From IMG/VR virus record IMGVR_UViG_3300027566_000003: a stretch of 64,000 nucleotides of DNA. One strand, written 5' to 3'. The translations under genes were made by a program, and so were the position numbers. Below, in pieces: positions 57,101-64,000 of this stretch. This stretch comes from a virus (taxonomy: Duplodnaviria; Caudoviricetes). The first letter of the stretch is position 1. The number at the start of each line of letters is the position of its first letter. Under the pieces are notes generated by a model that did no database searches, had not been told where the DNA came from, and saw only the letters and a list, made by a program, of their open reading frames with translations.

Positions 57101-60100
57101 AACCAAGACCGTAAGGTAAGGTTCAACGACTAGGCGAAAGCCGTACACTCAAGTGAGTGGAAATGGGAGACATCCTTAGTAGGATGGTGATATAGTCTAT
57201 TCTTGTATGAAAATATAAGAAGTTCATATTAAACAAATTATAATTTGTTTAATTGAGAACTGGCAAGGATTAACGAACCTTGTTGAATACAAAGCAATCA
57301 ATTAGTAGCCTTAGTTGAAAATTTTGACATGTACAAAAGTATGCTTGAAGATTATTCTAATGCTAGTGGATCGGCGATGGCAGAAAATGAAGTAAGAATG
57401 GGCAGTTGGGAAACCAAAATTAATCAGCTAAGAAATGCAATAAATAATTTTTGGAATAACACGATAGATACTGGTTTAGTGAAAAGTATGATTGGTGGTA
57501 TAACTCTATTAATTAATAACTTTGGTAATCTTAGAACTATTTTGGGATTGGTATTTACTTTGCTTGCGGTAAATAAAGGTGCTGTTTTTTTAAAGTTTTT
57601 AAAGGATTTTTCTTTATCTACTATATTATTAAATTCAAGCTTAGTTCAAACACAAGCTAGATTGGCTGGAATGTCTTTTGCTCAAATCGGATTGATGGGC
57701 ACAACTACTGCATTAAATTTTGCAATTAAAGGTTTATGGGCTACTATGCTTGCTAATCCAATTGGTTTAGTTGTAGGTGCTGTTACTGCTGTCATAGTGG
57801 CATTTGATTTTATGGGGGCAAGAGCTGAAAGGTCTGCTCAAAAACAAAAAGAAGTATTCGATGAATTAAATAGAAGTATTAATTCACTTAAACAACAAAC
57901 ATCGGAAGCAAAAAATCTAGCAAGTCAATATGAATCTTTATCTGCAATATCATCTCGTACAATAAACGAGGAGACAAAATTAGAAGAAATTCGATCTCGA
58001 TTAATAACACAATTTCCTGATTTAATTGATGGTTATGATGCAGAGGGAAAAGCAATCCTTGGGTCTTCTGAATCAATTCAACAAGCAATTAAAGACAACG
58101 AAGAATTATTAAAAGTTAAACAAGAACAAATGGCTATAACTTTTACTACTGATGGGAAAAATGATTTCTCGCAATTACAAAAAGACCAAGAAAGACTAGA
58201 CTTATTAATAAAACATAAAGACGAATATTTAAAAACAATTGAAGATATAAACAGCGGAAGTCAAAATAAAATTGATGAGTATGGTAATAATTCACTAGAA
58301 ATTGCTAAGAATAATTTAAAAGGCATTAAAGATGAATTATCTACACTTAGCGCAAAAGTTCTTGAAAGTAGAAAAGATTTATCTATTTTGGCTGAAGCTT
58401 TTTTACAAAGTAGCGATTCTGCTAAATCACTAGGCAAAGAAGCAGTAACTAAACTAATTTATGATTTGAGTAAGCTTAAAGATGAAAGTAAAATCACAGG
58501 GGAAGAATTCACTAAAATATTTGACGGTCTTAAAAGTTCTGATTTTTCTTCTGAATTAAATAAAGCAAAAATAGTTTTAGAAGAATTAGCAAAAAGTGGA
58601 GCAAATAAAGATATAATTGGAAATACTTATGAAAAAGCAATTTCTGACATGTCTCCATATTTAATAGCATTAGGAATTAGTGCTGAAGAAACAAATAAAA
58701 TTTTAAAAGACATGTTTAATATTCCAAATGTTCAACTAGCAAAAGAAAAAATAAATGATTTCTCATCTTCCCTCACCACTCTCCAAAAAACTTTATCAGA
58801 TGCATCGTCTTCTATTTCAGAAATCCAAACAGCATTAAAAGAATATAACGATAATGGGAAGTTTAATATTGATACAATAATTAAACTTTCAGAAAAACAT
58901 AAAGAACTTATTCCTCTTCTTGGAGATGAGAAAGGATTACATCAAGAACTTACTAATATTATTCATCAAGAACAAGAAGCGTCTCGCCAAGCTTATGCTA
59001 ATATGCTTATGGATAGTGCCGAGTATTATCAAAAGAATATTGAAGGAGTAAATTCTTTAGTTAAAGGTTTAAATTTAGGATACAACAAGGATCTTGAAAA
59101 CTTCAAATCACTTGCTGATGCAAAATTTAAAGTAGATCAAGCATTAATACAAAAATTAGCTTCAGAATGGTCTAATTTTTATAAAGCTGGGAAATTGGTA
59201 GCACAACCTTTGGATGCTGGAAGGACTCTTGTTGACGCTAATGGTAGGGCAAGTGGTAATGGATATGGCATATCTCCTGAAATGAAAGCTAATACAGATG
59301 GATTAAAAGATTATATAAATCAAATGAGTGCTTTTTCGTCTGCATTGGATGATATTGCTATGAAAGGTACTTCAAGCATAGATTTCTCAGGCATCGGTAT
59401 GTCTGGTGGTAAAGAGAAAGAAAAGAAACCTCAAGAACCCTCCTACACAGATCCAATTCAAGCCATCATAAACGAAATAAATTTAGAATCTAAACTTACA
59501 GCTGAAAAAAACAAAGCAATCCAAGCAGACCTAGACCTTGCCACTTCTAACAAAAACTACTCCCTTCAACTCCAAAAAACAACTGAACTCCTTAAAGGAC
59601 AAACAGATGAAATAAATCAACTTCAACAAGCCAATTATAAATTAATGTCTGAAGGAGATAAAGTTGGAGCCTGGAATTATATTGACGAAAACGGTGAAGC
59701 GACGAAGCAATATTACGACACATTTAATTCCTCATCTGCTGAAGCGCAAAAACTAATGCAGGATGAGCTATCAAAATTATCCACAATTAAGAAAGCAATA
59801 AATGAAAATACTCAAGCTATATTAGACACAAGATCAGCACAAGTTAAACTTAACCAATCTCTCCAAGAGTTTCAAAATTCCCAAGCAGACGAAGCAATCT
59901 CTGCATTAAAAGAATTTTATCAAAATCAGAAAGAATTAGATGATAAAGCATATCAAGAAAAAGTTGACAAATTAGAAAAATCTCATCAGAAAATACTTGA
60001 TAATCTCGAAAAAGAAGAAAAAGCAGCAGAGGAATCCATAAATGCACAAATAGAGGCAATAGATCGTCTTGCAGATGCTCAAAACTATAATAAGAACCTC

Positions 60101-61096
60101 AATACTGCACAATCTGAAAGACAGGATATTCAGAATCAAATCAATGCGATACAAAATGATACATCACCAGAAGGTCGCGCTAGACTCGCCGAACTCCAGA
60201 AACAAATTGCAGAGAAGAATAGTTCAATTGAAGATATGCAACAAACTCACACCAATGATCTTCGCAAACAAAATCTTCAGGATTCTCTCGAAGCAATAAA
60301 AAAGAACCTTGAAGCAGAAAAAGAAGCTGAAAATTCTATTTACAATGCCAAAAAAGAGAGAATGGAAGCAGAGAAGCAATTAGCAGAAGATAATTATAAT
60401 GCAAGAATGGCAGATGAGACATATTGGGCAGATTTAAGAAAAGCAATTTTAGAAGGTAATATTACTGACATAAATGATGCTTTGACTAACTTTTCTGACG
60501 GATTTACTAAAGATTTAACTGAGAAGGCAAAAGAGATTGATAGTGCATTTAAGAATATTATCAGCACCATTAATGAAATTAAATCTGCTTCAAGTAGTAT
60601 TCCTCAATACGCATCAGGCACCCCCAACCATCCTGGAGGACTCGCAAAAACATCAGAAAAAGGTTCAGAATTAATAATTCCTCCAAATAGACCACCATTC
60701 CTTAGTGGCAATAATGGCCCAGAAATAATGAACTTAGAAAAAGGAACAAAAATCCTCCCCCATAACGAAACAGAAGCATTACTTAACAAATCTACCCCAT
60801 CTACATTATCATCTATTCCCTCATATGCAGATGGAGTTGGTGTTTCTGACATATTAAAAAATATTTCCCTATCATCATTACTCCAAACAATTCCATCACT
60901 TATATCATTGCCATCGTTTTCTACACCACAGTTTACTCCAAATAATACATCATCATCATCGAATATAACTATTCCTAATATGAATTTTAATGTGAATGCA
61001 ACTGATGGGAAAATACCAAATAGTGAACTTGAAAGAGCAGCTAAATATACAGTCAAATATATTGAGAAGTTACAGATCATCAGAGGAAGAAATTAA
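54115..61096 (+). CDS. Tape measure protein, split by a group I intron (exon 1 to ~55991, exon 2 from ~57295)
   Basis: TP901-type TMP core motifs in exon 1. The frame resumes NQLVALVENFDMY upstream of ATG 57329. C-terminal YASGT motif. Confidence 0.9.
55992..57294 (+). mobile_element. Group I intron (IA-like) carrying an HNH ORF; boundaries uncertain by up to 5 nt
   Basis: P AACTGCTGGAAA at 56079, Q AATCAGCAA at 57094, R GTTCAACGACTA at 57121, S GATATAGTCT at 57189, plus P7.1/P7.2 and P8 hairpins. Confidence 0.9.
56156..56980 (+). CDS. Intron-encoded HNH homing endonuclease
   Basis: CVITGERFDDIHH, IHNKFHSLYGFGNN, N-terminal W-x-x-D-D repeats. Confidence 0.88.
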   Translation: MIFIQRWTDNDIKILKSNYTFGNVNNICDLLDNKFSYSAIVSKASKLKISSRNYWSEDDIDIMKKYYPIKTPIEMLEFLPNRNIKTITMKACELNIKNIVSLNLWFTIEDIDFIKNNWKEMTDEEIGVIISRKAHAICDKRCQLGLLRQAEESSYENLSEFVRRNNAEWKKKSMQNCNYKCVITGERFDDIHHTYGLNLILNDVLLHLHIEIKGKIDDYSDDELSSILYVFREFQNKYPLGVCLKKEIHNKFHSLYGFGNNTIEQWHEFKINYE

Positions 61097-61348
61097 TTTA
61101 TTGATTATCTTCCTCTTTTCCTATTGCCAATTAACAAAATAAAAATTATTTATTAAAACTACTTAGAGAGTAGTAAAAACTATTCTAACCACTTCTTTCA
61201 TTCTTATTATTAGTAAGAAAACTGCGAAGAGATGGGTTAGGATTATGTTCTGACTCTTCTCTAAGTAGTTTTATATGTTCAAAAATAATATCGCAGTATT
61301 ATCTCGAACTTAAAATTGCTAATAAAAAAGAAAGAAGTGATAAAAATT

Positions 61349-62500
61349 ATGGAAAAGAAAAATGAATTATCAGAATTTGCAAAAGAATTTGGTTTAATGG
61401 TTAACGAAGAAGGTAATGTAGCAGTTAGTAGCAGAACAATTGCAGAAAAGTATGGTAAAGAGCATAAACATGTCTTGAGAGATATTAGGAATTTAATTGA
61501 CGATGTTCCAGAAGCACAGTCCAATTTTGGACTATGTAATTATATCAATGAAAACAATAGAGAAATGCCTGAATATTTAATTGATAGACAGGGATTTAGT
61601 ATGTTAGTATTAGGATTTAGTGGGAAAGATGCTAGAATATTTACATATAAATACACCAAAGCATTTGAAGATATGACTGAAGAATTAAAATATAGGCGCG
61701 AACAGAGCACAGAAGTAATTAAAGCTCTAAACGAAAAGGATGATAAAATTGCTCGTAAGAAAATGCTTGAATCACATTTTGGAAAACGCAAAACAGTTTC
61801 TACTTTTAAATATTGTGATTATGAACAATTTCAAGGATTAATTATATTATTTGAAGAATATATAGATACAATTAGAGATACAGAAATAAAAAGAAAAGAA
61901 TATAGTAGATTGGTTGATGGATTGACAAAAAATAGAAATGGTCTAAATCCTAACGACAAGATGTATATGCCTAAAACGACCACTTATTCCTACTATATAC
62001 ACGAATACGTTAAGAAGAAAGGTTCTAGTGAGAATAAATCATATGGTCAAAGATTAAGATATAAAGATGAGATTATTAAGGATATGGACAATAAACTATC
62101 TATATTAAATCCTTCTATTGATGAGTATATGTGTATTCCGATTCATGGAATGTCTAATAATTCTCTATATGAAACAGTAAGAAATGATTACACAGGAAAA
62201 GATATAGTGGTAAAAACATATCAATATAAAAAATGGTTAGACGAATTCCCTACTGACAAATTAATACCAAAAGAAGAATTAAATGTTGATTGGGATAAAC
62301 CTATAGTGCTATTCTATAAGTTTGATTGTAAAAAGTCTATAGATGTAAATAATTTAGAAAAATCTGCCACAGATACCATATTAACAAAATTTTACGGAGA
62401 AAATGATAATATTGTAGATAAAACAATTATTGAGCGTAATTTAGATGTTGATAATTACACAGATGGTAAAATTTATATTTGCATTAGAAATATAGACTAA
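61349..62500 (+). CDS. Rha-family regulator fused to a RusA-like C-terminal domain
   Basis: VSSRTIAEKYGKEHKHVLRDI and GFSMLVLGFSG (Rha); C-terminal DVNNLEKSATD and ENDNIV. Confidence 0.85.
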   Translation: MEKKNELSEFAKEFGLMVNEEGNVAVSSRTIAEKYGKEHKHVLRDIRNLIDDVPEAQSNFGLCNYINENNREMPEYLIDRQGFSMLVLGFSGKDARIFTYKYTKAFEDMTEELKYRREQSTEVIKALNEKDDKIARKKMLESHFGKRKTVSTFKYCDYEQFQGLIILFEEYIDTIRDTEIKRKEYSRLVDGLTKNRNGLNPNDKMYMPKTTTYSYYIHEYVKKKGSSENKSYGQRLRYKDEIIKDMDNKLSILNPSIDEYMCIPIHGMSNNSLYETVRNDYTGKDIVVKTYQYKKWLDEFPTDKLIPKEELNVDWDKPIVLFYKFDCKKSIDVNNLEKSATDTILTKFYGENDNIVDKTIIERNLDVDNYTDGKIYICIRNID

Positions 62501-62570
62501 TATATAAAATAATGCTTATTATATGATGTGTAGTTGCTGCTGTTCGGCAACTCCATTAAATTAACAGGAG

Positions 62571-63392
62571 GTGAAAAAATCAATGCCAATACTTCAATCA
62601 CTATCATTTCTATATGACAATATAAACTCACAAGATTTAGGAGTCATTAACTGTCAAGTTGGTAGCAACGGACTTTACGAGGAATTTTTTTTACCTGAGA
62701 GAGAACTTAAGGAAATAACCACAAGATATAATGATAAACCAAGTTTTATACAAATAAAAACATTACCAAGATCATTTACTTTAACATTAGCATTTAATGA
62801 AGAATTTAATGAAGACAATTTAAGAGAAATTAAACGTTTATTTAGTTCTTCTAGCTACAAATCAATGATTTTTGAATCGTTACCGGATTATGTTTATTAT
62901 TGTATTCTCGTAGATTCTACTCCATTGTCACATAATGGAATACATGGTTATGCCATTTTTAATTTCAGATGTTCTGATCCTTATGTCTACTCTTCCGTTT
63001 ATCTTGATGATGAAATAGATCTTTCCACAAACCCAATATATGGGACATCTATTATTTTTACTAATAAAGGAGACTTGCCTTGCCAACCTCAAATATCCCT
63101 TCTCAAAGTAAATGATGGAGATATTAGTATAATAAATAATTCAGATGGAGGAAAAGAATTTAAATTATCAACTATATTAGATTCTGATGGTAATACATTA
63201 TTTGAATCATTAAAAGATGGAGAAGATTTATTTATAGATAATGAACAAGAAGAGATTACCTCCTCACTTCCAAATACATATCGTATAAACAATTTAACTG
63301 GTGATTTTCTTAGTTTAAATAGGGGTGTAAATAACTTAGTTATCAAAGGCACATGTAAAATACAATTTAGATATCAGTTTAAATTATATTAA
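62571..63392 (+). CDS. Distal tail protein (Dit)
   Basis: Follows the TMP gene; FRCSDPYVYS, NKGDLPCQP and LNRGVNNL motifs. Confidence 0.85.
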   Translation: MKKSMPILQSLSFLYDNINSQDLGVINCQVGSNGLYEEFFLPERELKEITTRYNDKPSFIQIKTLPRSFTLTLAFNEEFNEDNLREIKRLFSSSSYKSMIFESLPDYVYYCILVDSTPLSHNGIHGYAIFNFRCSDPYVYSSVYLDDEIDLSTNPIYGTSIIFTNKGDLPCQPQISLLKVNDGDISIINNSDGGKEFKLSTILDSDGNTLFESLKDGEDLFIDNEQEEITSSLPNTYRINNLTGDFLSLNRGVNNLVIKGTCKIQFRYQFKLY

Positions 63393-63460
63393 ACTATATT
63401 AAAAAATAAATAATAAATAAATAATAAATAAATAAAATCATATTAAGGATGTGAATTAAT

Positions 63461-64000
63461 TTGTTCATAGATATAGATTTATCAAAAACTCCACAGAAAC
63501 CAAAACTCTATCTTTGTAAACCAAATAAAACAATTATAGCATCATTAAAAGAATATTTTGGAGCGACTTTAAAATTATCACTAACAACATTAAATGAATT
63601 GGTTTTTAAATTACCTTATCAGCTAGAAATTGATCATCAATTACAATATAATACTCATTGTGAAATATTAAAAAATAGATACTTAATTAAATTAGTTTTG
63701 GGTTCTGTAATTTCATATTATGTCATAGACAATCCTGCTCCGAGTGCTGACGATGATGCTGATTTTTTAGAGGTAAATTGTTACTCTCTTGAATATGAAC
63801 TTAAAAATAAAAATTTAAGAAGTTACAAAGTTGATGGAGTATTATTGCCAGAAATCATGAATGGATTTTCAAGGGATATAACCACTATTGACCCCAACAC
63901 AGGATTATCAACTACAACTACAGAAAATACAGAAGGAATTCTAAAGGACACCTCATGGACACTTGGAACATATTCAGAAATTTTAAATTCTACATATAGG
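63461..64000 (+). CDS. Tail hub/spike (Tal-like) protein, truncated by window end
   Basis: TTG start after AAGGATGTG; open to the edge (MFIDIDLSKTPQKPKLYLCKPNKTII and VNCYSLEYEL); absent from the supplied track. Confidence 0.75.
   Translation, partial: MFIDIDLSKTPQKPKLYLCKPNKTIIASLKEYFGATLKLSLTTLNELVFKLPYQLEIDHQLQYNTHCEILKNRYLIKLVLGSVISYYVIDNPAPSADDDADFLEVNCYSLEYELKNKNLRSYKVDGVLLPEIMNGFSRDITTIDPNTGLSTTTTENTEGILKDTSWTLGTYSEILNSTYR

Follow-up and report, generated by a model that had tools for sequence, protein, structure and literature searches.

Positions 61149-61348 of the window (the whole 64,000-nt stretch of DNA analysed here, part of a 122-kb IMG/VR phage record) probably form the 5' leader RNA of an inserted Rha-RusA gene and belong to a conserved family of leaders that lock the ribosome-binding site (RBS) of the gene behind them. 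We infer that the leader fold represses translation in cis. In the proposed mechanism, an outer stem (H1) would close a junction containing hairpins H2, D and K/I, a downstream hairpin (L) would dock by its loop onto a junction strand (PK1), and the strand 3' of L would zip onto the inner domain as two 10-bp helices. Because the second of these helices would bury the Shine-Dalgarno sequence (SD), ribosomes should rarely initiate on the finished RNA, and a DNA-binding, nuclease-like protein would be kept at a very low level despite heavy transcription of the tail operon. The leader thus most likely holds a potentially harmful selfish gene at very low expression.

Pairing pattern of the leader and its conservation

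The features are collected in Table 1. The earlier note had described a 15-bp outer stem (61155-69/61258-72), which is present and is in fact a perfect stem of 16 bp (61154-69/61258-73). Its proposed pairing at the SD region is confirmed as a 10-bp helix between CACTTCTTTC (61190-99) and GAAAGAAGTG (61330-39), which covers the SD and stops 9 nt short of the ATG at 61349, and the 7-bp pairing that it had seen between ACTGCGA (61221-27) and TCGCAGT (61291-97), here PK1, is likewise real, as this pairing covaries in relatives. Absent from its list was a further 10-bp long-range helix, 61207-16/61316-25, that belongs with these pairings; it and the SD helix are both used in the minimum-energy fold of the window leader. 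In 2000 dinucleotide shuffles of 61097-61360, in which perfect stems were listed mechanically, stems of at least 15 bp never arose (0/2000), at least one stem of at least 10 bp arose in 18% and two such stems in 1.85%, and perfect 7-bp stems averaged 6.4 per shuffle; because 7-bp stems are this common, the 7-mer pairing would be meaningless in the window alone and is convincing only through its covariation in relatives. The + strand of 61097-61360 folds with an energy of -66.6 kcal/mol (z = -6.8), and the segment 61150-61280 alone with -43.4 kcal/mol (z = -6.6).

Table 1. Features of the leader, the cassette and the flanking tail genes in the window
Feature	Position	Strand	Remark
TMP stop-codon hairpin (AGAGGAAGA ... 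TCTTCCTCT)	61082..61116	+	same hairpin after TMP in L008, L009, L010, L006
Inserted cassette	61125..62582	+	AT-rich spacer, leader, Rha-RusA gene, 3' tail
Leader of Rha-RusA gene	61149-61348	+	region assigned as 5' leader RNA
H1 5' arm, outer-stem core	61155..61164	+	pairs with 61263-72; extendable to 61154-61169
Hairpin H2 (AGAGUAGU / ACUAUUCU)	61167..61186	+	in 13/13 copies
Anti-SD strand (CACUUCUUUC)	61190..61199	+	10 bp with 61330-39
Apical hairpin D	61201..61219	+	overlaps 61207-16, 5' strand of second long-range helix
PK1 5' strand (ACUGCGA)	61221..61227	+	junction strand within H1-closed domain; pairs with 61291-97
Hairpin K/I, 14 bp (61228-41/61249-62)	61228..61262	+	purine-rich 5' arm; predicted by RNAalifold
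H1 3' arm	61263..61272	+	U-rich run after it in all copies
Hairpin L	61277..61309	+	apical loop holds PK1 3' strand (UCGCAGU, 61291-97)
Second long-range helix, 3' strand	61316..61325	+	pairs with 61207-16
SD (GAAAGAAGUGA) and start codon ATG 61349	61330..61351	+	SD paired in minimum-energy folds
Cargo gene, 383 aa	61349..62500	+	N-terminal Rha DNA-binding domain, C-terminal RusA-fold domain
Dit (distal tail protein) gene	62583..63392	+	PHROG 33 Dit E = 4e-29; Pfam DUF6558_C, SPP1_Dit

Thirteen distinct leader copies of ~200 nt, the window's included, were identified on related large phage contigs. The H2 region common to them supplied an exact pattern that matched 13 viral contigs, and a second, independent pattern from a different part of the leader yielded L045 in addition; distinct copies were counted from the pattern matches, two metagenome loci (L012 and L016, whose 5' domains are 71-72% identical to the window's) and the window itself, whereas two further matches of the second pattern (L046, L047) lie inside coding sequence and were discarded as chance. 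The leaders are 59-74% identical to the window's, and the genes that they precede, their cargo, are unrelated between some of these phages. A covariance model of the 5' domain (R1) found exactly one copy per record in six phage records, the window's and five others, two of them complete genomes of 227 and 230 kb; its scores were 115-124 bits for the + strand and 38-52 bits for the - strand. Within the window's 122-kb record, window included, 61149-61351 was the sole match of R1 (E up to 1) and of a full-length model, R2 (E up to 0.01). A cmscan of 59000-64000 against Rfam 15 (E up to 1) returned nothing in 61000-61400, blastn of the leader against phage GenBank records gave no match, and the exact family pattern, which detects near-identical copies only, did not occur in 185,579 species genomes; the records holding L003, L005, L008, L009 and L010, which are fragments, carry no leader copy. 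On this comparative evidence the leader appears to be a conserved folded RNA family that was not previously catalogued and has no Rfam entry. Because its 13 copies, drawn from a few related metagenomes, fall into about eight lineages, each helix is backed by only 2-5 independent compensatory events.

The leaders were aligned with MAFFT (A1), in alignments A2 and A3, and with a model-based alignment of the 13 copies (A7). With H1 written as a pseudoknot, 98.6% of the cells of the pairing pattern were paired in A1, compared to 40-53% in slid controls, and 10 pairs were changed on both sides; in A7 the corresponding values were 93.7%, 43-53% in slid controls, and 15 pairs. Compensatory pairs are present in each of H1, PK1, 61207-16/61316-25 and K/I. 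Three of the ten pairs of H1 (61155-64/61263-72) are changed on both sides, its variants including CUAC/GUAG, UCAU/AUGA, UAAU/AUUA and UCAC/GUGG, and its G·U pairs occur on the + strand only. The L032 lineage has one mismatch in H1: at L032:4678-4692/4781-4795, and equally in L034 and L037, the 5' arm is of the window type (CUAC) and the 3' arm of the L045 type (GUGA), which, judged from these letters, resembles a recombinant of two compensated states or an intermediate between them. The search patterns predetermined H2 and parts of K/I, and H2 is otherwise invariant; loop insertions lengthen its stem, and in the independently found L045 its G·U pair is replaced by A-U. K/I is paired in 99% of cells; A-U and G·U often replace each other in it, and 1-2 of its pairs are changed on both sides. 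Because the window copy contains four G·U pairs, K/I exists on the + strand only. At the site of hairpin D, local hairpins of 5-8 bp form in 12/13 single-domain folds, the pairing in L032 being shorter. The helix 61207-16/61316-25 has 2-3 pairs changed on both sides and comes in four variants, one wholly rewritten (L038), and PK1 comes in three compensated variants (CUGCG/CGCAG, CGGCG/CGCCG, UUGCG/CGCAA). In all 13 copies hairpin L has a stem of 9-16 bp, built from unrelated stem sequences, and leaves 3-5 of the 5 CGCAR letters in its loop unpaired.

There are two sets of crossings, H1 with the three long-range helices and PK1 with the L stem, which makes the conserved pattern a double pseudoknot; the earlier note had used this term, a fair description of crossing helices that are kept by compensatory changes in homologues. 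We further infer that all crossing helices co-exist. The nested energy model is unable to score H1 jointly with the long-range helices, but the H1 duplex is worth about -6 to -9 kcal/mol in most copies (weaker in L032 and L038), and when it is added to a locked fold whose H1 arms are kept unpaired, the total comes close to the nested optimum; by this crude energy sum the pseudoknot is energetically possible, although a long helix is sterically demanding when one of its strands is enclosed in a loop. It is the + strand RNA that functions, given the G·U pairs and the model scores.

Several other candidates were discarded. For the enclosed CTAACC/GGTTAG of the earlier note, the complementarity exists (61185-90 with 61235-40), but the helix does not stand: it shows no covariation, is invariant with flanks unpaired in most copies, overlaps H2 and K/I, and competes with the better-supported hairpins 61167-74/61179-86 and 61228-41/61249-62, the latter of 14 bp. 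The helix 61218-25/61265-72 of the single-sequence fold is disrupted in several copies, and as for a conserved upstream ORF within the leader, short ATG frames vary among copies and are without an SD.

The SD helix and competing readings

In 12/12 copies analysed, the inner ~30 nt form a duplex of -20 to -26 kcal/mol with the 3' region, SD included, and this duplex ends 4-10 nt upstream of the AUG. Hairpins D, K/I and L separate the anti-SD from the SD, 130 nt further downstream, and the anti-SD tracks five SD variants (GAAAGAAGUG, GAAGGAAA, GGAUGUGU, AAGGAGG and AAAGGAG): cognate anti-SD/SD duplexes have a mean of -12.3 kcal/mol compared to -9.0 for non-cognate ones, and the cognate SD is the best or near-best partner for most anti-SD strands, a signal that is in part cheap because pyrimidine-rich anti-SD and purine-rich SD pair easily. 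The SD-paired fold is the minimum-energy fold of 12/12 leaders folded, the window's among them; forcing H1 while the SD stays free costs 1-17 kcal/mol. The SD helix is paired in 69% of A7 cells, an underestimate because the helix is misregistered in the AAAGGAG copies and in L033; it was judged from per-sequence duplexes in place of A7. The covarying anti-SD and SD of the relatives thus bear out the claim of a structured leader that pairs with the SD region.

A secondary consideration is timing. The first 125 nt would fold alone as a rod that ties up the anti-SD, and freshly made RNA may be briefly open before locking, because the early rod holds the anti-SD. In the isolated 5' domain, the rod forms in 12/13 copies at -37 to -50 kcal/mol, the anti-SD being paired to the K/I 5' arm, which is rich in purines; in the window the rod is computed to be optimal for all lengths of the growing transcript from 61268 up to the point at which the SD is complete (~61334-61340), and the computed direct-path barrier from rod to locked fold is 13-40 kcal/mol across copies. 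We raise it as a tentative and rather doubtful extension that the leader is a portable programmed-folding device that passes from an early open rod through loop docking to zipping into a pseudoknotted lock. Such a device would grant each transcript a brief window of translation or be unlocked by a shared phage or host factor, and would move between phages ahead of interchangeable selfish-gene cargo (nuclease, methylase, helicase).

The same two folds could also serve a two-state riboregulator, in which a trans factor chooses between the locked form and the rod, where a purine-rich decoy inside the leader holds the anti-SD and leaves the SD free. The factor might be a small RNA, a ligand, a protein of phage or host, or RNase III, which would cut the long helices. 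Every copy can adopt both folds, the energy gap to the rod with a free SD can be as small as 1 kcal/mol (and as large as 17), the rod is the best fold of the growing transcript and is separated from the locked form by the barrier given above, the large conserved 5' domain exceeds the needs of simple SD masking, and some copies offer a near-continuous duplex of ~25 bp, a length sufficient for an RNase III substrate. We nevertheless consider a riboregulator unlikely, as no candidate factor or ligand pocket was identified, the inner pairs of the rod are promiscuous purine-pyrimidine tracts with no covariation specific to the rod, and its defining helix, CUAAC/GUUAG, is invariant with flanks unpaired in most copies; autoregulation by the cargo is unlikely because the cargo proteins differ. 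More improbable still is a transcription attenuator, in which closure of H1 or K/I before the U-rich run at 61269-61276 would halt transcription and release a ~125-nt RNA, so that only read-through RNA reaches the gene. Four to six U followed by further U-rich sequence do stand after the H1 3' arm in all copies, and a consensus scan marks K/I and its tail as terminator-like in L032 and L039, there too with 6 nt between stem and U-run, but the terminator scan flags none in the window copy, where the U-run lies 6 nt from the K/I stem and has four of its U paired within H1. A stem around a ~90-nt structured insert is moreover atypical of intrinsic terminators, a stop here would cut the window's tail operon ahead of Dit, and the covarying SD, 61207-16/61316-25 and PK1 pairings 3' of the supposed stop would be left unexplained.

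The reading that departs furthest from an RNA function, a DNA-level palindrome at which recombination or cassette exchange would take place, or which would form the inverted termini of a small mobile element, with incidental RNA pairings, is disfavoured and highly improbable. It would account for the perfect 16-bp inverted repeat around ~90 bp and for the good folding of the - strand (z = -5.05), and leaders that retain 59-74% identity before unrelated cargo, at the left edge of swapped genes, could supply homology for exchange. However, a cruciform, or the opposite strand, would have A·C mismatches in place of the G·U pairs of H1 and K/I, the window's model score is 116 bits on the + strand compared to 52 on the - strand, each record holds a single copy with no second one, inverted or direct, and pairings that reach the SD and track its variants make sense only in mRNA. 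An RBS-locking leader RNA is the reading we prefer.

The inserted cassette and its cargo

The ORF upstream of the cassette encodes the tape-measure protein (TMP) according to PHROG and Pfam, and Dit, whose true start is the ATG at 62583, lies 3' of the insert. Among five related contigs fetched via Dit (L006-L010), L008 and L009 have TMP with its conserved stop-codon hairpin and then the Dit RBS directly, with no insert; because TMP abuts Dit in these two, 61125-62582 is an insertion whose DNA includes the leader, which bears out the earlier note in placing an insertion between TMP and Dit. In the other three the same junction is occupied by other genes: a 628-aa primase-like gene (L006:1383-3469), a 413-aa zinc-ribbon nuclease-like gene behind a small three-way-junction leader (L010:2620-4000) and a helicase-like gene (L007:1-1741). 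The left insertion edge lies at ~61124/61125, just past the TMP-stop hairpin, where similarity to the window ceases after CCT(T)AT; the hairpin is part of the resident TMP gene, outside the insert, and the 3' tail of the cassette supplies the SD now used by Dit. From these comparisons, the TMP-Dit junction of these phages is a hot spot for cassette insertion. The stop of the inserted gene overlaps or abuts the Dit start in L006, L010 and L007. A CUUUCC-type tract follows the TMP-stop hairpin (window 61082-61121; L008:3942-3975; L009:3931-3965); in the insert-free relatives it could pair with the Dit SD (GAAAGGAAGG), and in the window it is complementary to 61351-58, past the Rha start codon, over 8 bp, a length common by chance.

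The cargo of the window matches Pfam Phage_pRha (E = 1.2e-24) and the PHROG category Rha-like / anti-repressor. Its last 135 aa were modelled by AlphaFold2 with a pLDDT of 81, and the top seven Foldseek matches in the PDB are all RusA (E = 5.7e-5, TM 0.63-0.71); a cargo-family profile gave no match among PDB sequences, and the RusA fold comes from structure comparison only. The cargo alignment keeps a D-x-[DNQ]-N-x-x-K-x-x-x-D motif. Other leader copies precede genes in which Bro-N is joined to the C-terminal domain of the window's cargo, or a shared N-terminal domain to DUF559 or HNH, as well as a DNA methylase gene and a primase/helicase-like gene of 877 aa, and some copies combine the same upstream flank with different cargo. 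Cargo of the Rha/Bro-N plus RusA-fold, HNH and DUF559 types would plausibly need restraint, whereas the methylase and the primase/helicase-like protein are not obviously toxic. Between the window (61349-61372) and L033:10176-10199, whose cargo are Rha and Bro-N, respectively, the first eight codons (MEKKNELS / MENKNELS) are near-identical in DNA, and because these codons match, the conserved leader block extends into the ORF and the exchange point lies inside it. The leader thus forms a conserved front end with exchangeable genes behind it. In L043 (5138-5245 onward) an intact leader precedes a primase/helicase-like cargo that is stopped after 36 codons and followed by further ORFs, which may be a decayed or interrupted gene.

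A search upstream of Rha homologues, the check that the earlier note had suggested, recovered the leader only at L012, L016 and L041, most homologues being without it; the leader precedes unrelated genes, and a Rha-homologue search alone would have misled. Most Rha-RusA homologues have upstream, in place of a leader, a small conserved ORF of either of two types (~55 or 70 aa) that has a strong SD of its own (L004:1303-1520, L005:2480-2695, L011, L014, L015, L017, L029-L031), which may be a different control or a partner gene, and some Rha homologues without the leader have a promoter-like region upstream. 40-100 nt 5' of each leader stands a variable G+C-rich hairpin with a T-run (for example, L032:4620-4660 and L039:440-497), after which TTTTAYTATGT or GATGTGTC often comes, then a small hairpin and a tract resembling CAAATTTAAT; the window has a similar module at 62524-62569, between the Rha stop and the Dit SD. 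The module could be a terminator plus promoter or a gene-swap joint. The motif CAAATTTAAW, which recurs 5' of the leaders, is not enriched in the window (68 matches compared to 86 expected) and is not taken for a promoter. An antisense promoter-like site at 61373-61346 was discarded, because its -10 is ATTATG reversed and the other copies do not conserve it.

Comparison with known systems

To our knowledge, the mechanism by which selfish nuclease genes reside harmlessly inside essential phage operons is largely unknown outside the T-even phages. There, RBS-sequestering structures control T4 homing endonuclease genes, the T-even examples comprising I-TevI, I-TevII, I-TevIII, segB and Aeh1 mobE (reviewed in PMC2988022). 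They are single local hairpins, opened by a late promoter placed within the hairpin, which yields a shorter RNA whose RBS is free, and long transcripts are poorly translated as the SD is buried (PMC2988022). Common to both systems is a stable RNA that buries the SD of a selfish, nuclease-type gene lodged among essential phage genes. The present leader, which has no sequence relationship to those hairpins, is by contrast ~200 nt long, with four hairpins, three long-range helices and crossing pairings; no internal sigma-70-like promoter was seen in it (+ strand, 61200 to 61340), a consensus from which this phage's own promoters may differ, and it also precedes a methylase and a primase/helicase-like gene. 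Compared to the T-even homing endonucleases, the window's cargo joins a DNA-binding domain to a RusA fold, making it a candidate nuclease, and is absent from the same junction of relatives.

In the 5' UTR of the Levivirus (MS2) maturation gene, long-distance SD pairing across a cloverleaf is combined with delayed folding, which restricts synthesis of the maturation protein to nascent RNA (PMC4615214). As in MS2, an upstream strand just past a 5' hairpin pairs with the SD across intervening hairpins, and an early fold ties up that strand, the present rod being computed only, whereas the MS2 kinetics are proven. MS2 is a single-stranded RNA phage with an SD helix of 7 bp, and its leader, unlike the present one, is without an outer clamp stem, a loop-docking hairpin and a second 10-bp helix.

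Closer in setting are the small three-way-junction leaders of ~110 nt (L010), found in the same phage group ahead of nuclease-type accessory genes, which likewise have an outer stem closing a multi-hairpin junction, a U-run after it and an inner element that pairs at or near the RBS. The present leader is twice their size, with three inner hairpins and an external docking hairpin; its SD partner is a junction strand, whereas theirs is a hairpin loop, and its long-range loop is that of the external hairpin L, which binds a junction strand, rather than a second inner hairpin beside the RBS. The earlier note had taken it for a larger relative of this RBS-sequestering family: the likeness of design holds, but common descent is not supported because R1 and R2 match no other site in the window. 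By these models the window leader appears to be a family of its own, separate from the ~110-nt leaders. In type I toxin mRNAs (hok of plasmid R1 and aapA1 of Helicobacter), long-range pairings and metastable early hairpins close the RBS of a harmful gene, which is opened by 3' processing and countered by an antisense RNA; in the present leader, neither an antisense partner nor a processing site is evident.

The leader adds to these systems a new covariation-supported RNA, absent from Rfam, of unusual crossing-helix design, and it is reused ahead of at least four unrelated cargo types. If the proposed function is true, it would provide a DNA-phage candidate for programmed, delayed mRNA folding as in MS2 and a compact natural part with which translation could be tightly controlled in low-GC Gram-positive bacteria, and the T4 rule to hide the RBS of the invader would extend to large phages of spore-forming bacteria. 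The best-supported reading is that the leader would lock translation in cis of an inserted, mostly nuclease-type gene, a purpose analogous to that of the RBS hairpins of T4 homing endonuclease genes but achieved by a different construction.
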